DNA from: Candidatus Heimdallarchaeota archaeon
GTDB lineage: Archaea > Asgardarchaeota > Heimdallarchaeia > Heimdallarchaeales > Heimdallarchaeaceae
Assembly (NCBI GenBank): GCA_030668875.1
Contig: DAOVER010000005.1
Location: 26,597 to 90,596, forward strand
Length of the DNA stretch: 64,000 nt
Direction of reading: 5' to 3'
This document shows positions 5,630 through 52,648 of the stretch, piece by piece. Under the pieces are notes generated by a model. The model was given only the letters and a program-made list of their open reading frames with translations, was not told the DNA's origin and searched no databases. Within the stretch, counting starts at the first letter, position 1. Every line of letters starts with the position of its first letter. The translations under genes were made by a program, and so were the position numbers.

Positions 5630-8368
5630 ATGAATTCCAATCTTACTAAATTTCTATCTGAAAATTCAAAAAAAGACAACCCGAATATTCAGAATCAGAC
5701 TAATAAAGTTAATAATAGTAATTTTCCAGATGATGAAGAGGATAATCATATGTTTATTGCAAATCATGGAAAACAAACTCTTGAGGATAAAGGGAAGGAT
5801 TACATTCAAATTGCCCCTGACAACCTACCACCTTCAATTCTAATAGACGTAAAATATGATGGTAAGAATGAGCAAGCATATGCTAAATTGTTCAATCTTG
5901 AGGATGGAAGAGTTTACCGTTGGTATGACAATACAAACCATCTACCGTATCTATTAACAACTTTAAGCAAAACTCAAGTTGAAGCTCAATTAAAAAATGA
6001 GAAGGAATTCATAGGTTGTGAGATAGTAAAGAGACATAATTTGTTAAATGATAAAACCATAAATTTAACTAAGGTTCTAGCAACTAATCCTTTAGCAATT
6101 GGTGGTAAAAACAACAGTTACAGAGACCAACTGTCTCCCTCTTTTGAGTCCAATATTCGCTACCATCTTAACTATATTTATGACCGCCATTTAGTTCCAG
6201 GTACCTATTATAAAATTCAAAACGGGGAGTTGATAAGTGAGGAACCTACAATTAGTTTAGAAGTACAAGAAGGTATTCTTGAAATTTTTAAGGGACAATC
6301 ACAAGAAATTGCGAGATTAGTTAAACAAAACATGCCTCTATTCTTTGCACCTATTCCTAATATCAAACGTTGTTCTGTTGATATTGAACTTCATAGTGAA
6401 CCAAACAAAATCCCCGACCCAAATGCAGCGATTGAAAAGGTAATCTCAATAGGAATTTCAGATACTGATGGGGATACTTGTGTTTATGTGCTTAATGAAG
6501 AAGGTAAGCAAATTGACAAAATTAAAGCAATTAGTAAGTTCATTGAATTCAAGGACGAAGCTGAATTGCTTAAAGCAGTTTTCAAAAAAATTGGAGAATA
6601 TCCGGTTGTTATTACATTCAATGGAGACAATTTCGACTTTCTATATTTGGATAATAGAGCAAAAAAATTAAAAATAGAAGAAACTCTGATTCCTTTCATC
6701 AGAACAAGGACTCAAGACATCTATCTTTCTCATGCAGTTCATATTGATTTGTATCGATTCTTCAGACAACCAGCCATGAGAATTTACGCATTTGGGGGGG
6801 CTTATGAAAGAGTCACCCTAAACGAGCTAGGAAAATCACTTCTTGACAAAGAAAAAGTGAAACTAGATAAAAACATTTGGGATTTAGATTTAGAAGATTT
6901 AATTACATATAATGCACAAGACGCAGAAATAACTCTTGAATTAACTACATTTAGTAATAATCAAGCAATAGAACTCATATTTATGCTGTCCAGAATCACA
7001 AAGATGCCAATAGATGATTTCACAAGATCAAGTGTAAGCATTTGGATTCAGAACTGGATGTACTTTGAACACAGACTCCTAAATTATCTAATCCCAAGAA
7101 AGCAAGATATTCTACAACTGAAAGGTGATACATCTACGGAAGCAATTATCAAAGGTAAAAAGTATCAAGGAGCGATTGTAATCGAACCGCAAGTGGGTGT
7201 ATGGTGGAATGTCTCTGTTTTAGATTTTGCATCACTTTATCCTTCAATTATTAAAACTCGTAATCTATCATATGAAACAATCAATTGTACCCATGCAGAA
7301 TGTAAAGGGAATAAAATTCCTGAGACAAGTCATTGGGTATGTAGCAAGAAGGCAGGTATAAGTTCCATGCTTGTTGGATTTATAAGAGATATTCGTGTTT
7401 ATTGGTTTAAAGATCGAGCAAAAGACCCAAGTTTAAGTGAAAGTGAGAGAAATCAAAGCAATGTGATTCAATCTTCATTAAAAGTTCTTCTCAACGCCTC
7501 ATATGGCGTATTTGGTTCGGATAATTTCGCCCTTTACTGTCCACCTGTAGCAGAATCAACTGCGGCTATAGCCAGAGAAGCTATTTCAAAAACCAAACAG
7601 TACTGTGAACAGAAATTAGGTTTAAAAGTTCTTTATGGCGATACTGACAGTATCTTTGTGCTTAAACCAACGGAAGATAACATAAAAGAACTAGAAAATT
7701 GGAGTATGAAAACTTTTCAAATTGAATTGGGAACAGATTATGTCTTTAGATACTGTGGTCTTTCAGATAGAAAAAAGAATTATTTTGGCATCACAACTAC
7801 AGGAAAACCCATAGTGAAAGGTTTAATGGGTAAAAAGAAAAATACGCCTATTCTTGCTAAACGCCCCTTTGAAAAGGCTCTAGAGATATTATCTGAGGTT
7901 CAGAATCCTGAGGAATTAGAGGTTGCTAAGAAACAAATCATAAAGATAACTAAGAAAGTTGTTCAAGAGATATCGAAGAGAGAATTTAATCTTGAGGATC
8001 TTGCTATCACTGTAACACTATCAAAAAAACTTGAACAATACGATAGTTGGACTCAACCTTTGCAAACAGCCATTCAGTTAATTGTCGCATTTCCAGAAGG
8101 TGAAAGACCATCAGTTGGGAGTTTTGTTAGTTTCATCAAAACCAAACCATTTAAAATTCAAGCAAATGACGTAAAACTGTCTGATAAAATTAACAAGAGT
8201 AGTGAGTGTTCAGTTAAGCCACTTCAATTAGCTAAGAAAATAGATGTAGATATACCTAAAATTAAAGAACTACTCAAAACAACATTAGTACAATTGTTTG
8301 ACACCATTGGAATTTCATGGGATGAGTCTGTCGAAGGACAAAAATCATTAGATAATTGGTTCAAATAG
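5630..8368 (+). CDS. polB: DNA polymerase family B
   Basis: Exo I DIE, Exo II FNGDNFDFLYL, Exo III YNAQDAE, Pol A DFASLYPSII and Pol C YGDTDS motifs. The N-terminal ~100 aa is N/Q-rich low-complexity. Confidence 0.9.
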   Translation: MNSNLTKFLSENSKKDNPNIQNQTNKVNNSNFPDDEEDNHMFIANHGKQTLEDKGKDYIQIAPDNLPPSILIDVKYDGKNEQAYAKLFNLEDGRVYRWYDNTNHLPYLLTTLSKTQVEAQLKNEKEFIGCEIVKRHNLLNDKTINLTKVLATNPLAIGGKNNSYRDQLSPSFESNIRYHLNYIYDRHLVPGTYYKIQNGELISEEPTISLEVQEGILEIFKGQSQEIARLVKQNMPLFFAPIPNIKRCSVDIELHSEPNKIPDPNAAIEKVISIGISDTDGDTCVYVLNEEGKQIDKIKAISKFIEFKDEAELLKAVFKKIGEYPVVITFNGDNFDFLYLDNRAKKLKIEETLIPFIRTRTQDIYLSHAVHIDLYRFFRQPAMRIYAFGGAYERVTLNELGKSLLDKEKVKLDKNIWDLDLEDLITYNAQDAEITLELTTFSNNQAIELIFMLSRITKMPIDDFTRSSVSIWIQNWMYFEHRLLNYLIPRKQDILQLKGDTSTEAIIKGKKYQGAIVIEPQVGVWWNVSVLDFASLYPSIIKTRNLSYETINCTHAECKGNKIPETSHWVCSKKAGISSMLVGFIRDIRVYWFKDRAKDPSLSESERNQSNVIQSSLKVLLNASYGVFGSDNFALYCPPVAESTAAIAREAISKTKQYCEQKLGLKVLYGDTDSIFVLKPTEDNIKELENWSMKTFQIELGTDYVFRYCGLSDRKKNYFGITTTGKPIVKGLMGKKKNTPILAKRPFEKALEILSEVQNPEELEVAKKQIIKITKKVVQEISKREFNLEDLAITVTLSKKLEQYDSWTQPLQTAIQLIVAFPEGERPSVGSFVSFIKTKPFKIQANDVKLSDKINKSSECSVKPLQLAKKIDVDIPKIKELLKTTLVQLFDTIGISWDESVEGQKSLDNWFK

Positions 8369-42527: not shown

Positions 42528-43247
42528 TCATTTGTTTGTCTTAGATTGAGGTTTGTTCTTTGCAAGTTGTTCTTTTTTAGAAACAGTTGCTGTCTTTAAA
42601 GGTTCAATTTTTTTGCTCTTTTTCTTTGTATGAGTTGCTCCAGAGGGAGTTGCTCCAAATATTCTACTAAGCAATGAACCAAAAGCAAAAGATACCATAA
42701 AATACCAGAGAGTAAAAGGCGCTTTTGAGTATCCATGATATTTTAGGGGTAAAGTTGTATCCACTACACCAGATGGGTATGATATACCAGATACTTGGAA
42801 CCATGGATTTCCTATCCAGGGAAAATCACCCAGATTAAAGGGTAACCATGCATAGTTATGATCAGTTGTAAAAGCGGTTCTAAGTATAGCAAATAAAATC
42901 AAGAAGGGAATGGTTGTGATAAGCATTGGTTTCATTCTTTTGAACATCATGGAGGATTGTAATTTCTTTACTCTTTCTTCATCTCTTTTGACACTCAACC
43001 ATAATTTCTTATCAGCGGTTTGCATTGCTGTTTTTCTCTTTTGATTCCAATCGTTAACTTTCTGCATACTTTCTTTTAATGCATCAGTATCAAGTATCAA
43101 TCGAGTAGCCAGTGTAGATATGCTTGCAAGCATGATTGAAGTTAGGGCTATAAATAGTGCAGAGTTAGGAAGTTGATTCCATCCCATACTAGTTATCCAT
43201 TCTGCAATTCCTGTAAACCATGGGTCCCAAAATGCCATATAAATCAC
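42528..43247 (-). CDS. DUF106-family membrane protein (Oxa1/YidC-superfamily insertase-like) with Lys-rich tail
   Basis: Three TM helices, in the expected synteny position. Confidence 0.55.
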   Translation of the reverse strand: MIYMAFWDPWFTGIAEWITSMGWNQLPNSALFIALTSIMLASISTLATRLILDTDALKESMQKVNDWNQKRKTAMQTADKKLWLSVKRDEERVKKLQSSMMFKRMKPMLITTIPFLILFAILRTAFTTDHNYAWLPFNLGDFPWIGNPWFQVSGISYPSGVVDTTLPLKYHGYSKAPFTLWYFMVSFAFGSLLSRIFGATPSGATHTKKKSKKIEPLKTATVSKKEQLAKNKPQSKTNK

Positions 43248-43323
43248 TTCTTTTGCTTACTTACTCCACAAATAACTCACTTTTAAAAGCTTTTGTAACT
43301 AGAGTTTTTAATAATCTAATTCT

Positions 43324-44124
43324 TTAGATGTTGGGGAGAGAATCTTTTTTCAGTAAAACAAAGAAGTTATCTTTTCCACCTTTCCCACCGCATATTGAGA
43401 GATCAATTATGTTCAGATTAGTTTTCTCTAATATAGAAACAAGTTCTCTTTTGGTGAAAAGATGGTAAAATCTCTTTGCAATGATATTTCTATTTTCATC
43501 GCGCCAGGGGAGATAAATATCACCATGTCGCCAATCCTTATTTTTCAATTTCATAATAGGGTAGATTAAGAAATCGCCAATCAATTTTTTTCTAGTATCT
43601 GGCTTCCATCTTCTCCAGCAAGATAAAATAAGATATCCATCTTCTTTTAGCAAGGTTGACAGATGTTTAAGACATGAAACTGTTTCTTCCTTCACTCGTA
43701 GATGATGTATAGTCGCAATAGATAAAACTAAGTTGGCAAAATTGCTACGCAAACTTAAAGATTTCATATCGTTATTTATTGTGAAATGATTCCCTGCTTG
43801 AATATCAACTGAAGCTTGTAATAATTCTAAGGATATATCAGTGGCAATGAATTGTAAACTAGAACTATCAAAATGAAGAAGGTTTCTGCTGTTACCTGCA
43901 CCAATATCAACAAGGATACCTGAGGAAGGCAAAGAATGTATTTTGGAAATCTTATTCATGTACGTTTGAAAATCTTTCCAAGGCTTTCTTTTTACTCGTG
44001 CATACTTTGGAGAGATTTTCTTATAAGCTTCTATTAGCTCCTTATCACTATTCTTGTTACTAGTAAACAATGCATAGAATTTAGATATACAAAGTATATC
44101 AATTTTCTTCTTATTTCTGAACAT
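43324..44124 (-). CDS. class I SAM-dependent methyltransferase, Trm9-like
   Basis: VDIGAGNS motif I, SIATIHHL motif. Confidence 0.55.
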   Translation of the reverse strand: MFRNKKKIDILCISKFYALFTSNKNSDKELIEAYKKISPKYARVKRKPWKDFQTYMNKISKIHSLPSSGILVDIGAGNSRNLLHFDSSSLQFIATDISLELLQASVDIQAGNHFTINNDMKSLSLRSNFANLVLSIATIHHLRVKEETVSCLKHLSTLLKEDGYLILSCWRRWKPDTRKKLIGDFLIYPIMKLKNKDWRHGDIYLPWRDENRNIIAKRFYHLFTKRELVSILEKTNLNIIDLSICGGKGGKDNFFVLLKKDSLPNI

Positions 44125-44240
44125 TAAACAATGATTTTTATACTCTATAAAAAATCAAAATTTGTGTTTATGTTTGTGTTTATGTTGAAGGCAAAAATGC
44201 TTATAAATAGAAGCACACCTATCACATTAAAGCCACACCG

Positions 44241-45695
44241 GTGAATTACATGGTTTCAAAGTTCTTGATGCTATTCAAACCGTTTCAACGTTTTACCTTT
44301 GAGGTAAAGAAGCCAGCAAGAAAACCTTCTTTTAAAAGAAAGTTAGCTTGGACCTTCGGAATCCTAGCCCTCTATTTAGCTATGCTAAATATTCCTATTT
44401 TCGGTATACCTGAATCAGGTGGAACCGATCCCTTCTTCGCCATGAGGGCAATATTAGCTTCACAAAGAGGAAGCTTAGCAGAATTAGGTATAGGACCTAT
44501 TGTAACTGCTGGTTTGATTATGCAGTTACTTGTGGGATCACAAATTATCAAAGTTGATTTTACTAATCCTGAAGAACGTGCTCTATACACCGGAACACAA
44601 AAAATACTTGCTATATTGATGACCCTATTCGAAGCTTTAGCATATATTCTTGGTGGAGCTTATGGAGAGTTAGGTTTCCAAGCACAAATGATTGTATTAT
44701 TGCAATTAATTGTTGCAGGTTTTACCATTCTTCTTATGGATGAAGTTATCCAGAAAGGTTATGGACTTGGAAGCGGTATTAGTTTATTCATTGCTGCAAG
44801 TGTTTCATATACTATCTTTGATGGCATGTTCAGTTTAACGCAAGAAAGAATTGGAGGTTTTGATTGGTACAGAGGTTGCGTTCTCGCATTCTTTCAAGGT
44901 ATCTTCAAAGAAAATCCAGACATACTAACACCACTCAGTAGACCTGGTAGAACCCCCGATGTAATTGGTTTACTGGCAACAATAGTTGTTTTTGCAATGG
45001 TTATCTATGTAGACTCTATGAAAATTGAGATACCTGTCCAACACAGCCAATATAAGATGCCAGCCAGATATCCAATAAAATTCTTATATACGTCAAATAT
45101 CCCTGTAATCCTTGTAAGCGCCTTATTTGCAAACATCTACTTCGTTTCAAACCTAATGCACAACTCTTGGAGTGATATAACAACGGGTTATCAAGGATTC
45201 TTGGTCGACTTTTTCGGTAGATGGGATACGATAGAAGGCACGGAACAACTAACTCCAGTTTCGGGGCTAGCAGCTTTTACAACGGCACCGTATGGACCTG
45301 AACAAATTGCGGAGCAACCGTGGCATGCCCTAGTGTATTTACTATTAATGGTTGCACTTTGTGGTATCTTCTCGCGTATTTGGATAGATACGGCTGGGAT
45401 GAGTTCAAAAAATGTTGCGAAACAACTGTTAGATGCAAATATGCAAATACCTGGTTTTAGGCGTAATCCAAGGATTGTAGAAAGATATCTAGAAAGATAC
45501 ATTCCTACAGCAGCCTGGCTCGGAGGTTTCTTTATAGGTGTTCTAGCAGCAGTAGCGGACTTTCTGGGAGCTCTTGGTACGGGTACTGGTATTCTGTTAA
45601 CAACGGGTATTCTCCGTCAGTACTATGAAATCTTCGCTAGTGAACAAATTAGTGAAACTGTTCCAGCTTTAGCTGGAATGTTAGGAATAAAATAA
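44241..45695 (+). CDS. secY: preprotein translocase SecY (canonical copy)
   Basis: NIPIFGIP...GIGPIVTAGLIMQLLVGSQI plug/TM2 region, 10 TM segments. Confidence 0.9.
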   Translation: MNYMVSKFLMLFKPFQRFTFEVKKPARKPSFKRKLAWTFGILALYLAMLNIPIFGIPESGGTDPFFAMRAILASQRGSLAELGIGPIVTAGLIMQLLVGSQIIKVDFTNPEERALYTGTQKILAILMTLFEALAYILGGAYGELGFQAQMIVLLQLIVAGFTILLMDEVIQKGYGLGSGISLFIAASVSYTIFDGMFSLTQERIGGFDWYRGCVLAFFQGIFKENPDILTPLSRPGRTPDVIGLLATIVVFAMVIYVDSMKIEIPVQHSQYKMPARYPIKFLYTSNIPVILVSALFANIYFVSNLMHNSWSDITTGYQGFLVDFFGRWDTIEGTEQLTPVSGLAAFTTAPYGPEQIAEQPWHALVYLLLMVALCGIFSRIWIDTAGMSSKNVAKQLLDANMQIPGFRRNPRIVERYLERYIPTAAWLGGFFIGVLAAVADFLGALGTGTGILLTTGILRQYYEIFASEQISETVPALAGMLGIK

Positions 45696-45735
45696 AATTC
45701 CTCCCCCTTTTTTTACTTTTATTTTAGTATCCCTA

Positions 45736-46686
45736 CTAAAGATGTAGGTCTATCACTTTGTTTGTCTCGATACTTTCGATAGATGCGAGAGCAATCTTTA
45801 AAGCTTTAAGCCCATCGACCGAAGTTACAACAGGTTGTTTATTTTCTAAACATGCTTCCGCGAAAGAATTCATTTCTCTGCTTAATGGTTCTTGCCAAGT
45901 TGATTTTGTATTTCGTAACCACTCATCGTCTTCAATGATATATTCTTGTGTGATGTAATCAGCTTCTACTATCCCTTGCTCACAAGTAAGCATCAATTTT
46001 CTATATCTGTGAGGTGTTAAATAATTAGATTCAATGAAACCAGTCAACCCATTATCAAAATCAAGTAATATTTCAGCATAATCAATATAGCTATGACGTA
46101 ATTTTCCTCCACGAGCATACACGGAAATAGGATCTTTTGAAGTTAAATATCTGAAAGCATCAATATCATGGATACTCACATCACGAATAACATCAACATC
46201 TTTTAACCTATCAGGCCAAAATGGGCCTAGCCTTCTTGCACTCAACAATACAAGTTCACCTAGTTCCCCACTCCCTATGAGAGTTAGTGATTTGCCAATT
46301 ATTGGATTGAAACGTTCGATAAAACCTACAGACACAATAACGTTTGAGCTTTTAGCTGCATCAATAATTTTCTCTGCTTCTTCTAAGGTACTTGTCATAG
46401 GCTTCTCTATCATAACATGTTTTCCATGCTCTATAGCTTTGAGCGCTATTTCCCCGTGAGTAGAAGTAGGAGAAGCTATACTAACCGCATCTATTTCATT
46501 TAGACTCAATAGCTCATCTAAATCTGAAAAAGCTCTAGCACGATGTATCACTGCCAACTCTTTAGCCTTTTCAAGCTGAATATCATAAATACCAATAAGG
46601 TTTGTTTTTTCCATTTCTTTAAAAGCTCTTGCGTGGTTTTTACCCCAGCTTCCTACTCCGATAACTGCCATATTGAGTTTTTTCAT
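45736..46686 (-). CDS. Gfo/Idh/MocA-family NAD(P)-dependent oxidoreductase
   Basis: MAVIGVGSWGKNHARAF Rossmann N-terminus, EKP motif. Confidence 0.8.
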   Translation of the reverse strand: MKKLNMAVIGVGSWGKNHARAFKEMEKTNLIGIYDIQLEKAKELAVIHRARAFSDLDELLSLNEIDAVSIASPTSTHGEIALKAIEHGKHVMIEKPMTSTLEEAEKIIDAAKSSNVIVSVGFIERFNPIIGKSLTLIGSGELGELVLLSARRLGPFWPDRLKDVDVIRDVSIHDIDAFRYLTSKDPISVYARGGKLRHSYIDYAEILLDFDNGLTGFIESNYLTPHRYRKLMLTCEQGIVEADYITQEYIIEDDEWLRNTKSTWQEPLSREMNSFAEACLENKQPVVTSVDGLKALKIALASIESIETNKVIDLHL

Positions 46687-46808
46687 CGAATCACTACCAA
46701 CTACATAAATTAATTTTACTCGCTTTGAGTAAACATAAGTGAATATTTAAAATTTTTTGTATGATTATTCTAAAAAATGAATTAGAGTAAATAAAAAGAA
46801 AAGAAAAA

Positions 46809-47267
46809 TTAGTTAGAGCTGCTTAGTTGAACTTTGCCACCAGCAGACTCTATTTTCTTAATTGCTCTTTTACTAGCTTCAGCAACTACAATATTCATCG
46901 CAGTGTTGACTTCGCCTTGAGCAAGAAGTTTAGTATAACCAAGCTCTGTCAAATTGACTTCGTATTTAGCACCCTTCTTTGTGACTTTTCCTTCACGTTC
47001 GAGGGTTGTGACCATTGAGTCTAAATGAGAGACATTGATTACAGTGTTGTCTTTTATGGATTCTCGAGGGCGGATGAAACCATGTTTTCCAATTGGAGGA
47101 CGCAAACCTTTAATCGTTTGAATCCAGTGATGTGACTTAGGAGCAGCTTTACCTACTCCCCCGCGCATACCACTTTTTCTGTGGGTTCGTACAACTCCCC
47201 AACCATGGGTTCTGTATCCGCGACGTTTTCCGGTTTTCTTCTTAGTTCTAACTGTCATTTTGATCAC
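46809..47267 (-). CDS. rpl15: 50S ribosomal protein L15 (uL15)
   Basis: GYRTHGWG...RGG.G pattern. Confidence 0.85.
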   Translation of the reverse strand: MIKMTVRTKKKTGKRRGYRTHGWGVVRTHRKSGMRGGVGKAAPKSHHWIQTIKGLRPPIGKHGFIRPRESIKDNTVINVSHLDSMVTTLEREGKVTKKGAKYEVNLTELGYTKLLAQGEVNTAMNIVVAEASKRAIKKIESAGGKVQLSSSN

Positions 47268-47782
47268 GCCATCCTTACAATAAGCTCGTTTATAGCTGAG
47301 CCTCTATAACCTAAATCTCCGCCATCTGCAAAGCTTCTTTTAACAGATTTGTAACCTTTTCTTGCAGGATGTAATCTGAAAAATTTCTTTAGCTTAGGAA
47401 CCTTTTGAATTATAGTTTCTCCTGTCATTAGAGCTTTTGAAAGTGACTTTATGGTTGGATATTCAGTATTTTCCTTAACAAACTTATCAGTCAATCTAAT
47501 TTTTCCTTCAGACTCTCCTCTTTTCCTTAGGACATGTTCTAAAGCTTCTTGGTTTATTTCACCCCAAGTTACATGATCTTTTGCACGCTTTAGCATACCA
47601 AGGGTTGAAGGAGTATTAAGAAATAATGACATATAGTTTGTCTTACGAATGTTTAACATATCCAAATTTTGTTGAACCTTATAGAAGACGTTAATTCTTC
47701 CTCTAATTCTAATAACTGCCAACAATTTTAGAGTATCTTGTTTTTCACTCATGTTAATCACTTTCTTTATCTTCGTGTCCAA
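47264..47782 (-). CDS. rpl30: 50S ribosomal protein L30 (uL30)
   Basis: AVIRIRG...L.ML.. pattern. Confidence 0.8.
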
Positions 47783-48408
47783 TCGTATGGAGCCATGATT
47801 GAATAGGTGTTTTTCAAAGCTTCAAAAGTTGCTTTTGCAAAATTTGAAGTAGTTCGTGTTTCACCAAATGTTTTGCTCCAAACATCAGATATTCCTGCTA
47901 ATTCTAGAACAGTTTTAGCAGTGTTTCCAACGACTAATCCTAAACCTCTGGGTGCTGGATAAAGAATAACCTTTGTAGACCCTACCTTACCTGTTGATTT
48001 GAAAGGAACAGTGTGTGGCCCTCCACAGTTGCATTCCCACGAACCGCATCCTCTACGAACAGGTCTGATGTTCAATTTGGCATTAACCATCGCTTTCTTA
48101 ATAGCTGGACCTATTTCTTTGAGTTTTGCTTCACCTACACCAACATAACCGTTTTTGTTTCCAACAACAACAGTTGCACGGAATTTACGTTTTCGACCCG
48201 CGTCTGTTTGTCTTTGAACAAGGCTTATATCAATCACATCGTCCTCTAGGGTGTCACCAAGCAGAATATCAATTATTTCAGGTTCTGCTAAAGGAAGACC
48301 TTGTTGGAATAGTTCATCGATAGTTGTAATTCTACCATCTTTTACTAATCTTCCAACACGAGTTCGAGGTTCCCATTCTTCTAAATCTAAAAACATTTTA
48401 TTGCTCAT
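47767..48408 (-). CDS. rps5: 30S ribosomal protein S5 (uS5)
   Basis: GRK.KF.A.VVVGN.NGYVG and AKL.I.PV.RG.GS motifs. Confidence 0.9.
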
Positions 48409-48418
48409 CTTTTATACC

Positions 48419-49066
48419 TCATTCCATTGAATCAATTTTTGATTTTGTCTCTTCAAAATACTCGGTTATCTTTTCAGGTTTCTTACTTGCTGCTAAGTAT
48501 TTGGCAAAGTATCTGTTATACTTGTTTTGATCTTCTTTAGCTAAGAGTTTTGCATATGATTGAATATGATCCCCTCTAATTCTATCTTCAGAAGGCAACA
48601 TAGTTTCATTGCAAGGAACATCAACACCTGCGTCAACAACGCCTTTGAGGGTTGCAAAGATTTTTGTTCCAGAGTATGCGGTGTGTGTTCCGATATCCAG
48701 AATAGCATCCTTGATTTTAGCTTTCAAAGCTCTTTTTCCAGCAAGATAGCCTGTAAGGTACGATGCAGGCAAATTGGATGTTGCGATATCCCAACCATAT
48801 TTTTTGAGATCACCTGATGTTATCTGAATGTAAGTTTGATCTCCACCAATTTTTGACATAACAAATTGTATCAATACTTGTTTATTGGATGCTCTTGTTA
48901 CAACCCTTATTTTACCTGATTTCAATAATCTTTTACGCTGACCATAATCAGTTTTAAGCTCTCTTCGTCTTCTAAAAGGCACTCTATACAGAGGTCCTTG
49001 CCTTTTCATCTTTTGTTGTAATTTTCTTCTCTTCTTTGGTCCTCTTTTACTTCTTCGACTTGACAT
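48419..49066 (-). CDS. rpl18: 50S ribosomal protein L18 (uL18)
   Basis: RLVVRASNK-like pattern, synteny. Confidence 0.85.
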   Translation of the reverse strand: MSSRRSKRGPKKRRKLQQKMKRQGPLYRVPFRRRRELKTDYGQRKRLLKSGKIRVVTRASNKQVLIQFVMSKIGGDQTYIQITSGDLKKYGWDIATSNLPASYLTGYLAGKRALKAKIKDAILDIGTHTAYSGTKIFATLKGVVDAGVDVPCNETMLPSEDRIRGDHIQSYAKLLAKEDQNKYNRYFAKYLAASKKPEKITEYFEETKSKIDSME

Positions 49067-49079
49067 AACTTAACACCTC

Positions 49080-49544
49080 TTATAATTCAGGAAGTCTCTT
49101 CTTAGAGAGACCGTGTTCGGCTATATAATTTCGGAGATATCTCACAGAACGGAATAAACCACCTTTTGACTGTAAATACAGTTTTCGGTAGGTTGTAGTA
49201 TCAATGTATCCTTCGTCCCTTAATTTCTTCAAGAACTTTCTCTGGGCACGGATTTTCCCAATCCATCTATCTTTCTTTGAAAGTCTGGAATATTTTGGAC
49301 CTTTACGGCTACCAGTACCAATTCTTTGACCTCTCCTTTTCTTTGCTGCTACAGCTCGAGCTCGTCCTCTACTAACACCTTGAATTTTCCTTTTCCTAAT
49401 ATCGCCATCATCAATATGACGTTTTACATCTTCTCTAGTAATAGCTAGAGAAAGATCGTATAGGCTATCAGGATCAATTTTAACTCTATTGGATCCAACT
49501 TTGAGGATTTTTGCTGCTAATCTTCTTTGTGTTTTAACGTCCAT
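49080..49544 (-). CDS. rpl19e: 50S ribosomal protein L19e (eL19)
   Basis: QRRLAAKILKVG N-terminus. Confidence 0.85.
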   Translation of the reverse strand: MDVKTQRRLAAKILKVGSNRVKIDPDSLYDLSLAITREDVKRHIDDGDIRKRKIQGVSRGRARAVAAKKRRGQRIGTGSRKGPKYSRLSKKDRWIGKIRAQRKFLKKLRDEGYIDTTTYRKLYLQSKGGLFRSVRYLRNYIAEHGLSKKRLPEL

Positions 49545-49559
49545 AATTCTAACCTCACA

Positions 49560-50105
49560 TTAATTTTCTGCTTTGTCAGAATCTGCTAATTCATCGAGAT
49601 CAAGATCCTCATCTAATTCGAAATCGTCTTCGAAATCGTCACCAATATCATCTTCAAGTAATTCGTATTCTTCCTCAAGCGATGTTGCGTCAAGCATATC
49701 ACCAATTTCATCTATAGTTGCAGGTGGGTTCAAAACCTTAAGTCCCAAATCAGCTGCATTGTCTAGAATCATTTGCCTCTTACGAGCACCAACGGTGTGC
49801 TTAATCATAACTGCTTCAGTTTCTTTATCTATTTCTTCAAGTTCATAGATATTAGCAACATGAACTACTTGATAACCCGAAGGATGCAGACCTCTGACAG
49901 CTTTTGGTCCCCGGTATCCTATGCTGACCATAGCAGGATAACCTTTGCGTTTTTCTTTCATTTTATTATCAATACCCTTAGGTTTACGCCAGCTTTTTTT
50001 TACTCTCTTGTAACGCCAGCTTTCTTGCCTAACAAAGTTAGGTCTACGAGCACTGATTTCTTTACGCTTTTTTAGTAAACGTTTCTTATCGACTGTCATA
50101 GGCAC
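49560..50105 (-). CDS. rpl32e: 50S ribosomal protein L32e (eL32) with ~50-aa acidic C-terminal tail
   Basis: RRPNFVRQESWRYKRV...GYR core. Confidence 0.8.
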   Translation of the reverse strand: MPMTVDKKRLLKKRKEISARRPNFVRQESWRYKRVKKSWRKPKGIDNKMKEKRKGYPAMVSIGYRGPKAVRGLHPSGYQVVHVANIYELEEIDKETEAVMIKHTVGARKRQMILDNAADLGLKVLNPPATIDEIGDMLDATSLEEEYELLEDDIGDDFEDDFELDEDLDLDELADSDKAEN

Positions 50106-50271
50106 TCACAGTAGAATGTTACCTTATTTTGGTTAACCTATCATCTGGCTGTAGTTTTTAATACTTTTTATTGGTAAGAAAAAATGAAGTGAAAAGTTAT
50201 ACTAAACACAAATTTGGGGAAAAAATTAAAAAATTTGCAAAGGTTTAAAATGTTTTAAGAGGAAATCAATA

Positions 50272-51651
50272 ATGGAATCGAAGAAATTGGACTTATTTGA
50301 TTCAATGTCTTCAAGAGTAAGTATCCCATTTAATCTTAAGGTAATTTATACTTCTTTGTTTGCTATTCTTTATCTCATATTTCTAAATATACCCATTTTC
50401 GGCGTGCCTAGTTCAGGAGGAACTGATCCTTTTTTTGCTTTCAGAGTCATTATGGCATCTCAGAGAGGAAGTTTGGCAGAGTTTGGTATTTTTCCGCTTG
50501 TATACGCATCTTTCATTATGCATGTATTGGTGGGGTTAGGAATTTACAAAATGGATTTCACACAAGCAGAGAAGAGAAAGAAGTTTTCGATTATAGTTAC
50601 TATTCTGGGGTTGTTTTTCTCTCTCACATCATCTTTATGTTATGTAATTTTTGGTGCTTATGGAGAGATAAGTGTTGATCAAGGTTTTATAATCATTCCT
50701 CAATTATTGCTTGCTAGTACTCTTATAATAATAATTGACTATTTCATGAGAAAAGGGTACGGATTGAGCTCTGGTGTAAGCTTGTTTATAGTAGTCAGTG
50801 TTTCACGAACTATCTTTGATGGTATGTTCAGTTTAAGTCAATTAAGAGTTGGAGGTTTTGATTGGTACAGAGGTTGTATTCTCGCATTCATTCAAGGTAT
50901 CTTTAAAGAAGACCCAGATATACTGACACCACTCATCAGACCGGGTTTAACACCTGATTTTCTGGGATTCATTTTAGCAATTATAGTGTTTGGAATGACG
51001 ATATTCTTTGTATCCTTTACCATAAAGAGACCATTCTATCAGAGAGATCAAATTACAAAATCATCGATGACAGCTCAATCATTATACAACTATTCTAATT
51101 CCGTAGTAATAACCAGTTCATTTTTTGCAAATATTTCCTTCGTTTCAAATATGATGTTTAATACATGGAGCTCATTTTCAACGGGATTTAGAAGTTTGTT
51201 GGTTAGTTTCTTCGGTAGATGGGAGACGATAGAAGGCACGAATCAGCTAGCTCCAGTTTCGGGGCTAGCGGCTTTTACAACCCCTCCATATGGGGTTGAA
51301 CAAATTACACAACATCCGTGGAATACTTCGGTGTATTTTCTATTTATGATTGTATATAGTATCCTTATGTCTAGATTATTAGTAAAAACATCAGGAAAGG
51401 AAAATGTAAGTATTCTAAAAGGAACAGACATATTTAATCAAGAAAAATATGAAGTCACTAATTTCCCTTTAGCATTATTAGCTGGTTTTTTCATGGGGTT
51501 TTTAGCAGGGTTTTTTAACATCATTTCTCCATTGGGAACAGGAGTAGGTATTCTAATAACAACGTGCATACTGAAACAACTCTTGGACATCATTTCCCAT
51601 GAAAAATCCAAATGGAATGAATCAAGAAAAAATACGGAAATTAATAAATAA
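50272..51651 (+). CDS. divergent SecY paralog (SecY2-like), antisense to the flanking r-protein genes
   Basis: NIPIFGVPSSGGTDPFFAFRVIMASQRGSLAEFGI aligns with canonical SecY, but the plug/TM2 region is divergent (FPLVYASFIMHVLVG). 459 aa. Confidence 0.75.
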   Translation: MESKKLDLFDSMSSRVSIPFNLKVIYTSLFAILYLIFLNIPIFGVPSSGGTDPFFAFRVIMASQRGSLAEFGIFPLVYASFIMHVLVGLGIYKMDFTQAEKRKKFSIIVTILGLFFSLTSSLCYVIFGAYGEISVDQGFIIIPQLLLASTLIIIIDYFMRKGYGLSSGVSLFIVVSVSRTIFDGMFSLSQLRVGGFDWYRGCILAFIQGIFKEDPDILTPLIRPGLTPDFLGFILAIIVFGMTIFFVSFTIKRPFYQRDQITKSSMTAQSLYNYSNSVVITSSFFANISFVSNMMFNTWSSFSTGFRSLLVSFFGRWETIEGTNQLAPVSGLAAFTTPPYGVEQITQHPWNTSVYFLFMIVYSILMSRLLVKTSGKENVSILKGTDIFNQEKYEVTNFPLALLAGFFMGFLAGFFNIISPLGTGVGILITTCILKQLLDIISHEKSKWNESRKNTEINK

Positions 51652-51697
51652 AAAATCAAGAAACATTAAGAAAAATAAAAAAAGAAGAATTGGAAAC

Positions 51698-52258
51698 TTA
51701 TTCGCTTGCCCACTTCCAGATTCCATCCATAAATGTTTCAGGATCTTTCTTTCTCTTACCCCTTAATCTACAGATTTCTTTCATGTTGGTAGTGGTTTGT
51801 CCTACAGCTTCTTTATCGATACCTTCTATGATAACATCATCTTTGTCAACCTTAACAGTTGTATCATCTCCTACAATAGGAACAATCAAAGGTTTTCTTC
51901 CTCCATAGAGGTTCTTGATTGTTATTAGACGTTTCTTGTTATCAGGTTCAACTGTAATTGGAAAATGGCTGAAGATTATTTTTGATCTATAGACATAACC
52001 TTCTGTTACACCTATCATCATGTTTTTGAGATGACCTACAACGGCAAGCATTTTTGCCTTTTTCTTTTTGTCAACGAAATAGGATTTGACATTGATTTTA
52101 TCTTTTGACTTCTTTAGTTCTACCTTGAAACCCTCGAAGTTTTTGATAAGTTTACCTCTTTTACCTTCCATGGTAACTATAGTTCCGTCAATAGTTATCT
52201 TCAAATCCTCAAGTAATTCAACATCTCGTTCAATATATACTTGTTTCATTATCATCAC
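51698..52258 (-). CDS. rpl6: 50S ribosomal protein L6 (uL6)
   Basis: Two-domain L6 pattern, synteny. Confidence 0.85.
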   Translation of the reverse strand: MMIMKQVYIERDVELLEDLKITIDGTIVTMEGKRGKLIKNFEGFKVELKKSKDKINVKSYFVDKKKKAKMLAVVGHLKNMMIGVTEGYVYRSKIIFSHFPITVEPDNKKRLITIKNLYGGRKPLIVPIVGDDTTVKVDKDDVIIEGIDKEAVGQTTTNMKEICRLRGKRKKDPETFMDGIWKWASE

Positions 52259-52648
52259 CTAATATATGTAAGCTAATAGCCTTCCACCTATTCCACGTTC
52301 TTTTGCATCCTCGTGGGTTATTACACCTTCAGATGTTGTCATTACAAGGATACCAAAACCTCTTGCAGGTAGGTACTTTCTTTCTTCATCTTCTAGTTTA
52401 TCATGTTTAACTGGAAATCGAGGTTTGATAACACCACATTTGTTAATCCTGCCCATCAATTGTATTTCGAACATTCCTCCACGATGATCTTCTATATATT
52501 CAAGTTCACCGAGATATCCTGCTCTTTGAACAGTTCTGAAAACGTTCGCAATTATTTTACTAGCGGGTTTAACAGTGACGGTTTTCTTACCTTTTTTTTC
52601 AGCGTTAAGTATTGCAACTAAAGCGTCTGCTAATGGATCCATTTGCAT
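52259..52648 (-). CDS. rps8: 30S ribosomal protein S8 (uS8)
   Basis: DPLADAL..I.NAE N-terminus. Confidence 0.9.
   Translation of the reverse strand: MQMDPLADALVAILNAEKKGKKTVTVKPASKIIANVFRTVQRAGYLGELEYIEDHRGGMFEIQLMGRINKCGVIKPRFPVKHDKLEDEERKYLPARGFGILVMTTSEGVITHEDAKERGIGGRLLAYIY

Follow-up and report, generated by a model that had tools for sequence, protein, structure and literature searches.

The window analysed here, a stretch of 64,000 nucleotides (nt) from a contig of Candidatus Heimdallarchaeota archaeon, carries two genes of the SecY/Sec61-alpha family, which we designated SecY1 and SecY2. The two genes were nearly identical in two short internal patches and strongly diverged elsewhere. 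These patches very probably arose by interlocus (ectopic) gene conversion, with SecY1 and SecY2 as the partners and SecY2 as the resulting mosaic. The genes and segments concerned are the following (positions are those of the window; TM, transmembrane helix).

44241–45695, plus strand: SecY1, 484 amino acids, the housekeeping SecY/Sec61-alpha and probable tract donor
50272–51651, plus strand: SecY2, 459 amino acids, a divergent, fast-evolving SecY/Sec61-alpha paralogue and probable tract recipient
44805 (or 44811)–44948, plus strand: patch 1 in SecY1, the end of TM5 and the entire hinge loop L5/6
50803–50946, plus strand: patch 1 in SecY2 (putative converted tract), amino acids 178–225
45210–45287, plus strand: patch 2 in SecY1, the middle of extracytoplasmic loop L7/8
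51208–51285, plus strand: patch 2 in SecY2 (putative converted tract), amino acids 313–338, within loop L7/8
50947–51207, plus strand: unconverted inter-patch segment of SecY2 (TM6, cytosolic loop L6/7, and TM7), in which SecY2-specific sequence was kept

A preliminary description of this DNA had noted two segments of approximately 90% nucleotide identity between the genes. Both segments were real, but the values were slightly lower: 84 of 96 positions were identical between 44840–44935 and 50838–50933 (87.5%), and 65 of 74 between 45212–45285 and 51210–51283 (87.8%), the SecY2 ends given earlier (50935 and 51285) being 2 nt off. A repeat finder independently recovered both segments in register, as D1 (44754–45046) and D2 (45123–45354). 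Within the boundaries listed above, nucleotide identity was 86% in patch 1, with a nonsynonymous divergence (dN) of 0.10, and 87% in patch 2, and the amino-acid identity within the patches was 0.83–0.85. The background outside the patches was 53.9% for nucleotides and 42.9% for amino acids, and the amino-acid identity over the whole gene was 49.5%. In the sliding-window comparison proposed in the preliminary description, 20-codon windows peaked twice at 0.85–0.90 against a background of 0.40–0.68, indicating that the divergence was strongly patchy rather than uniform. The longest exact shared run was 28 nt, starting at 44851 and 50849 in patch 1; the exact runs in patch 2 were 19, 15, and 14 nt, and its tract in SecY2 may have a decayed extension reaching approximately 51327. 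Between the patches, 50947–51207 showed a nucleotide identity of 0.40–0.67 with SecY1, and codon identity at sites with the same amino acid was at chance. A single long tract over both patches was rejected, because the silent sites of the intervening 260 nt matched no better than by chance and this stretch was equally distant from every SecY1. The two patches may have arisen by discontinuous repair of one heteroduplex.

Synonymous divergence (dS) between SecY1 and SecY2, calculated by the method of Nei and Gojobori, was 0.38–0.39 in patch 1 and 0.30 in patch 2. Elsewhere it was 2.1–2.2 and saturated, so that the silent divergence of the patches was far from being as high as that of the remaining gene. 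At sites where both proteins had the same residue, codons were identical at 49 of 59 sites in the patches and at 73 of 158 outside, and codon usage alone predicts a codon identity of 0.40 at such sites. A permutation scan of silent-codon matches that required no predefined boundaries gave p = 0.004. An N-terminal block (44379–44500) had a protein identity of 78%, yet only 12 of its 31 same-residue codons were identical and its proportion of synonymous differences (pS) was 0.80, which is saturated. Since this equally conserved block was saturated at silent sites, the similarity of the patches was more than protein conservation. Among SecY1 orthologues, dS was 0.29–0.41 in patch 1, 0.11–0.23 in patch 2, and 0.33–0.39 elsewhere.

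Protein search and genome scan recovered six further SecY2 loci and, from the same Heimdall family, approximately 27 genes of the SecY1 type. Loci of relatives are designated Lnnn, the SecY1 and SecY2 genes of the window W_Y1 and W_Y2 (and those of relatives correspondingly), and the window's own species group consists of the window, L006, L007, and L010. The SecY1 orthologues of L006, L007, and L010 differed from that of the window by approximately 7.5% of nucleotides. The members of the SecY2 family, which is small and limited to one Heimdall family, are located as follows.

Window: 50272–51651
L005: 5171–6224
L003: 2679–4052
L001: 10001–11347
L045: 3041–4339
L046: 2127–3456
L047: 9950–11236

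Comparison with orthologues, also recommended in the preliminary description, yielded segment trees that conflicted with high bootstrap support and thereby revealed the mosaic ancestry of SecY2. On the 410 non-patch columns, the SecY2 genes of the seven loci were monophyletic (100 of 100 bootstraps with nucleotides, 100% with protein) and were the sister group of the SecY1 genes of the Heimdall family. In the patch-1 tree, W_Y2 and L005_Y2 fell within the SecY1 clade of the window, L006, L007, and L010 in 299 of 300 bootstraps, and monophyly of SecY2 was never recovered; in the patch-2 tree, they fell within the same species-group clade with 80% support. Distances showed the same pattern. In patch 1, the nucleotide distance of W_Y2 was 0.14 to its own SecY1, 0.18–0.19 to those of L006, L007, and L010, and 0.35 as the median over all SecY1 genes, and in patch 2 the nearest SecY1 genes were those of the species group (0.10–0.14; median 0.36). 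Outside the patches, W_Y2 was equidistant from every SecY1 (0.47–0.50); the inter-patch stretch was likewise flat (0.45–0.52 to all SecY1 genes), as was the conserved N-terminal block. L005_Y2 was nearest to its own L005_Y1 in patch 2, at 0.05 (4 of 75 positions different). The silent codons of W_Y2 were identical to those of SecY1 genes of its own group at 45–48 of 56–60 sites, and to those of every other SecY1 at approximately 40–50%. A motif in patch 1, GIFKE(N/D)PDILTPL, was found only in the SecY1 genes of the species group and in W_Y2 and L005_Y2.

The preliminary description had also reported that the patches were richer in GC than the surrounding sequence, the window as a whole being AT-rich (approximately 35% GC). 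This was correct for patch 2, in which the GC fractions of the two genes were 0.47 and 0.53 compared with 0.39 and 0.32 in their non-patch parts, but patch 1 was marginal (0.39 in both genes). Since GC at third codon positions was not raised in the SecY1 patches, the GC excess reflected a peptide composition rich in Gly, Ala, Pro, and Thr. GC-richness is therefore an amino-acid by-product and no independent sign of conversion or foreign origin, and we rejected it as a mark of foreign origin or biased conversion. On the minus strand, an open reading frame (ORF) overlapped patch 2 in each gene (45191–45502, 103 amino acids; 51243–51431, 62 amino acids), and both ORFs carried the peptide VVKAASPETG; the simplest view is that they result from the near identity of the DNA and do not indicate a gene.

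The AlphaFold2 model of SecY2 (mean predicted local distance difference test score 69, predicted template modelling score 0.73) contained 10 TM helices and a plug helix and superposed on rabbit Sec61-alpha (7tm3) with a TM-score of 0.80. In this model, patch 1 was predicted to comprise the end of TM5, a beta-hairpin (residues 190–199), and the short helices of the extracytoplasmic hinge loop, and patch 2 (residues 313–338) was predicted to lie inside loop L7/8. Proteins of the Sec61/SecY family have an N-in topology. From this topology, the modelled helices, and the alignment with Sec61-alpha, both tracts are assigned to the two large extracytoplasmic (lumen-equivalent) loops of the predicted structure. 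The least similar parts of SecY1 and SecY2 were the cytosolic loops L6/7 and L8/9. In the window SecY2, 12 residues of L8/9 were missing, including the conserved ribosome-contact segment IPGFRR (51380–51470, amino acids approximately 370–400), and so was the C-terminal tail found in all SecY1 genes (ISETVPALAG..LG.K); IPGFRED was retained in other SecY2 genes. The L8/9 deletion suggests that ribosome docking of the window SecY2 is altered or lost.

The features by which interlocus gene conversion is recognized were thus present: paralogues in the same genome, delimited segments of low dS, phylogenetic incongruence, and similarity beyond that due to constraint or codon bias, the last being less clean for patch 2, which is short and has a slightly low orthologue dS. 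SecY1 and SecY2 are direct repeats, both on the plus strand, with an offset of 5998 nt (approximately 6 kb), and are set within a cluster of ribosomal protein genes.

Minus strand of the window: ribosomal protein cluster with L5, S8, L6, L32e, L19e, L18, S5, L30, and L15
46809–50105, minus strand: L15, L30, S5, L18, L19e, and L32e, between the two SecY genes (ORFs, orthologous gene calls, and Pfam matches)

In the mechanism that we propose, homologous recombination would have begun in short identical runs, of which the longest today is 28 nt, and SecY1 sequence would have been copied non-reciprocally into SecY2 at 50803–50946 and 51208–51285 without crossover. This replacement would have occurred at about the time when the species group radiated, already in the ancestor shared with L005, and would have been followed by approximately 13% nucleotide drift. 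Because a crossover between the direct repeats would delete six ribosomal protein genes, presumably only non-crossover products survive; crossover products would be lethal through the loss of essential ribosomal protein genes. The tracts would be retained only in regions that show no functional differentiation between the two channels, and the helices, the plug, and the cytosolic ribosome-binding loops would stay paralogue-specific. The retention of the tracts may perhaps be explained, speculatively, by a common partner to which both channels dock on their outer face. A more far-reaching version of this idea, which we consider doubtful, is that SecY2 is a second Sec61-alpha-like channel, specialized in its helices, plug, and cytosolic loops, whose outer loops are repeatedly reset by conversion to fit a shared and fast co-evolving partner. 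Candidates for such a partner would be translocon accessory proteins like oligosaccharyltransferase (OST) or the translocon-associated protein (TRAP) complex, and Asgard archaea encode OST and TRAP homologues (PMC10307638). If true, the archaeal pair would parallel Sec61/Ssh1, with conversion keeping a common interface matched.

As to the age of the event, the preliminary description had proposed recent or ongoing partial gene conversion or, alternatively, a chimeric origin of the second copy. Partial conversion agreed with the patchiness, the dS values, and the conflicting trees, and is equivalent to a mosaic, in this sense chimeric, SecY2; a recent or ongoing process did not agree with the 13–14% difference between the tracts. 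The dS between W_Y1 and W_Y2 in the patches (0.30–0.39) equalled that of SecY1 among orthologues of sister species (0.29–0.41), and the boundaries of both tracts coincided within one codon in W_Y2 and L005_Y2. Because of this agreement in dS and boundaries, the conversion probably dates to about the radiation of the window's species group, and would thus be much younger than the duplication without being recent. The three-way distances in patch 1 (20, 14, and 21 differences) fitted a single event before the split of the window and L005. L005_Y2 and L005_Y1 shared one private synonymous change in patch 2, a single site that hints at a later top-up conversion in L005. Scans of metagenomes for more genomes of the species group, with SecY2 peptides and with a 26-nt DNA pattern of patch 2, found nothing.

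The sequences make SecY1 the more likely donor and SecY2 the more likely recipient. The patch-2 peptide of W_Y2 and L005_Y2 was of the typical SecY1 type, and the other SecY2 genes were divergent or deleted there. The hinge motif was also present in the SecY1 genes of L007 and L010, loci without a SecY2 between L32e and L6. The reverse, in which the hinge (patch 1, FKE-x-PDILTPL) of SecY1 was a gift of SecY2 that dates from the ancestor of the species group, seems improbable. It would agree with the derived nature of the motif and its confinement to the species group, with the basal position of the SecY2 pair in the joint clade of the patch-1 tree and the fairly long stem of that clade, and with a dN between W_Y1 and out-group SecY1 genes that was 0.19–0.25 in patch 1 and 0.08–0.09 elsewhere. 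However, the hinge was variable in all SecY1 lineages (those of L011, L013, and L016 differed mutually by 22–27%), and F-x-[DE]-[DN]-P variants occurred in other SecY1 genes (L014, L017, L025, and L029). The converted sequence of patch 2 was also clearly of the SecY1 type, and L007 and L010 kept the motif without a SecY2 at the site between L32e and L6.

Independent conversion of the hinge appears to have taken place in one or more other lineages, and weaker signs of it were present in a further two or three. In the patch-1 tree, L003_Y2 was the sister of L063_Y1, the SecY1 of a different lineage, in 295 of 300 bootstraps; in the hinge of L003_Y2, nucleotide identity was 0.80–0.87 and 10 of 13 to 13 of 16 silent codons were identical. 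The L001_Y2 hinge was nearest to the SecY1 of L009 (0.20), with distances of 0.20–0.24 to the SecY1 genes of L009, L011, and L012 against a median of 0.36. For both L003 and L001, the SecY1 genes compared were the nearest ones from other samples, not those of the same genomes. The L047_Y2 hinge was nearest to the SecY1 genes of L015, L016, and L019, a group that includes the copy of its own genome (0.25–0.27 against 0.40). Outside the patches, the distances of the L003, L001, and L047 SecY2 genes were flat (0.40–0.47). P0009/L064 was rejected as the SecY1 partner of the L001 SecY2, because the two shared no DNA detectable by blastn and their silent sites were saturated. The hinge of P0029, a SecY2-type protein, copied features of the L013-type SecY1 (RGAVLAFFQG-RRGD and RLGR). 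CSMAG_1408, RS_9_76, and HMA_bin2.96, which hold both genes, gave a weak hinge signal (nucleotide identity 0.72–0.82), and their SecY2 genes were without most of loop L7/8. In total there were two well-supported hinge events (window/L005 and L003) and weaker signals in L001 and L045–L047, so that fewer than five species were secure. Over the whole family, none of 48 hinge positions discriminated SecY1 from SecY2, compared with 96 of 410 elsewhere. Because of these positions and the nearest-SecY1 signals in several lineages, we regard the hinge as a probable site of recurrent conversion, and the conversion of patch 2 as probably specific to the lineage of the window and L005.

This recurrence bears on the origin of SecY2 itself. 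We consider it decidedly improbable that SecY2 was chimeric at acquisition, that is, that it came by horizontal transfer from another Heimdall lineage and recombined once around its integration. Its distribution was indeed patchy: SecY2 was present in the window, L005, L003, and L001 and absent between L32e and L6 in L007 and L010, and in L045 and L047 it was found elsewhere, beside an ORF with a Recombinase domain. Nevertheless, the common insertion site in the window, L005, and L003 (adjacent to L6 in L001) favours vertical descent with losses, and hinge conversion was seen in several lineages, each against the SecY1 type of that lineage. Even such a transfer would involve homologous recombination between the two genes, and only its timing would differ from that of the conversion proposed here.

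Several points weigh against conversion of SecY2 by SecY1 as dated and placed above. The Fisher test on the identical codons at same-residue sites (p = 6e-7) was optimistic because the tract boundaries were picked after inspection of the alignment, and the longest run of identical codons was by itself not significant (p = 0.07). The trees were neighbour-joining trees on short segments; patch 2 had just 26 codons and a tree support of 80%, and with its low orthologue dS (0.11–0.23) it may be under some extra constraint. The hinge of the L005 SecY1 was missing because of the contig end, and for this reason a single ancestral event is indistinguishable from one event in each of the two lineages, that of the window and that of L005. 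The direction is unproven for patch 1, since the hinge motif, which is derived in the species group, could in principle have arisen in SecY2. The recurrence in L003 and L001 was judged across samples, and the selective account of where the tracts lie is only what we infer.

Unusually strong purifying selection at the level of DNA or RNA in both paralogues without any recombination, whether on an embedded RNA structure, on an element with a regulatory or antisense role, or through extreme codon preference, is very unlikely to have produced the patches. The patch peptides were highly conserved (amino-acid identity 0.83–0.85), antisense ORFs overlapped patch 2 (45191–45502 and 51243–51431), and the dS of SecY1 orthologues was lowish there (0.11–0.23). 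In patch 1, however, SecY1 orthologues showed normal silent variation (0.29–0.41 against 0.33–0.39 elsewhere). The silent sites of W_Y2 matched SecY1 genes of its own group at approximately 80% and others at 40–50%, whereas constraint predicts that all are alike, and the patches carried a lineage-specific peptide motif. The equally conserved N-terminal block was saturated at silent sites, and antisense ORFs are expected from two near-identical sequences. A search of 43500–52500 gave no Rfam match with an E-value up to 1, and an RNA element in the patches was rejected on this basis. We regard constraint as refuted for patch 1 and as unlikely for patch 2. An assembly or binning artefact, with SecY1 reads mis-joined into the SecY2 contig, can practically be dismissed: although a metagenome-assembled genome (MAG) is the probable source of the window and two Logan contigs stopped a few hundred bases upstream of SecY2, the patches differed by 13–14% from SecY1 with the reading frame intact, the identical SecY2 protein occurred in two independent Logan assemblies from other sequencing runs, and L005, an independent MAG from another study (BPTK01), had the same mosaic and boundaries with substitutions of its own.

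SecY1 matched Pfam SecY (231 bits) and the Plug domain and scored 424 bits on the NCBIfam archaeal SecY equivalog model (cutoff 300), and its closest solved relatives were mammalian Sec61-alpha proteins (385 bits). SecY2 scored 190 bits on the same NCBIfam model, under the equivalog cutoff of 300; our own domain search found only the Plug domain in it, and Pfam SecY was present in the precomputed annotation. SecY2 is therefore a divergent member of the SecY/Sec61-alpha family and not an equivalog of housekeeping SecY. It lies between the L6 and L32e genes, antisense to both. The database relatives of the window genes were Heimdall-group Asgard archaea. SecY1 was outside the canonical L15–SecY order and inverted relative to L15, from which it was separated by a gene for a GFO/IDH/MocA-type oxidoreductase (45736–46686, minus strand); upstream of it were genes for a methyltransferase (43324–44124) and an EMC3/TMCO1-like insertase homologue (42528–43247). 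This arrangement (42528–46686) was common to many relatives (L006, L007, L010, and L013–L021). The L32e homologue (49560–50105, minus strand) had a long, strongly acidic C-terminal tail (EEEYELLEDDIGDDFEDDFELDEDLDLDELADSDKAEN), which was variable, the tblastn match ending at approximately residue 135–142 in several relatives.

Because all SecY2 genes formed one clade on the non-patch columns, SecY2 goes back to an old duplication, which predates the radiation of this Heimdall family; it is no recent duplicate. The SecY2 genes of the window and L005 differed by 24.8% of nucleotides and their SecY1 genes by 7.4%, so that SecY2 evolves roughly three times faster than SecY1. Outside the tracts, dN was 0.19 and dS 0.89 between these SecY2 genes, indicating that purifying selection persists. 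SecY2 adjoined L6 in antisense orientation in the window, L005, L003, and L001; in the first three of these, among which L003 is a distant relative, it lay between L32e and L6. L007 and L010, which are close relatives, had L32e and L6 side by side with no SecY2 at that site, from which we conclude that SecY2 was lost in some lineages. In L045 and L047, SecY2 was at another locus outside the ribosomal protein cluster. One or two genes downstream of it was an ORF that weakly matched the Pfam Recombinase domain (L047, 11507–12481, E-value 4e-5; L045, 6060–6956, E-value 1.5e-4), as would fit a relocation through a mobile element. In L030 (Candidatus Heimdallarchaeum endolithica), a fragment of 62 residues resembling a SecY N-terminus (7271–7456) was located approximately 2.5 kb upstream of SecY; it was 47% identical to amino acids 9–70 of SecY2 (E-value 7e-11) and may be the remnant of a duplicate. 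A profile search of 1.84 billion representatives found just two more SecY2-type clusters, P0026 and P0029. The window SecY2 (P0001) was not its own representative in the library clustered at 50% identity; with its overall identity of 49% raised by the converted patches, it may have been clustered with SecY1-type proteins. We found no description of an Asgard or Heimdall SecY/Sec61 paralogue in the literature searched, and the SecY2 family is apparently undescribed.

SecY is a standard phylogenetic marker in trees of Asgard archaea and of eukaryote origin. A mosaic SecY2, 49% identical to SecY1 and in part made of SecY1 sequence, can contaminate marker sets and clustering at 50% identity. Conversion that is confined to the two extracytoplasmic loops and recurs in the hinge would mark which parts of the channel are functionally differentiated (helices, plug, and ribosome-facing loops) and which are not. 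The antisense SecY2 in the ribosomal cluster of close archaeal relatives of eukaryotes also offers an entry to translocon specialization before eukaryotes.

Interlocus conversion between prokaryotic paralogues is established, tuf and mtrA being examples in which it has recurred over long periods (PMC6053082), and concerted evolution of tufA and tufB has been described (Lathe & Bork 2001, as cited in PMC6053082; Wang & Chen 2018, PMC6053082). SecY is absent from the 26 genes listed in the survey of PMC6053082. As in tuf, an ancient duplication of a core housekeeping gene was followed in the SecY pair by apparently repeated non-reciprocal recombination in several lineages and by differential loss of one copy, and the two copies of one genome give the impression of being younger than the duplication that produced them. 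In tuf, however, the whole gene is homogenized and the copies are equivalent, whereas the SecY pair has two short tracts of approximately 145 and 80 nt, outside which SecY2 has kept an amino-acid identity of 43%. Archibald and Roger reportedly described, in 2002, partial conversion among paralogous subunits of the archaeal chaperonin (thermosome), limited to certain domains. That case is the nearest precedent known to us and resembles the present one in that domain-limited mosaic conversion of archaeal paralogues was seen through conflicting phylogenetic signal; it differs in the protein family and the archaeal phyla, and it involves no membrane protein and no loop-specific pattern.

With yeast Ssh1, compared with Sec61, and with the bacterial accessory SecY2, the SecY2 described here shares the presence of a faster-evolving second channel copy beside an essential one, and its model also superposed on Ssh1 (2ww9) with a TM-score of 0.72. 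Unlike these proteins, it stems from an independent duplication inside one Heimdall family, and its neighbours are ribosomal protein genes, with no SecA2/Asp-type or Sbh2/Sss1-type genes adjacent. The NCBIfam model NF009082 of the bacterial accessory SecY2 did not match the window SecY2 and gave SecY1 36 bits against a cutoff of 353, so that the window SecY2 does not belong to the bacterial accessory Sec system. To our knowledge, gene conversion has been reported neither for the pair of Sec61 and Ssh1 nor for that of SecY and the bacterial SecY2. The conversion mechanism itself is already well known, and the SecY pair differs from the known cases in its sharply segmental pattern.

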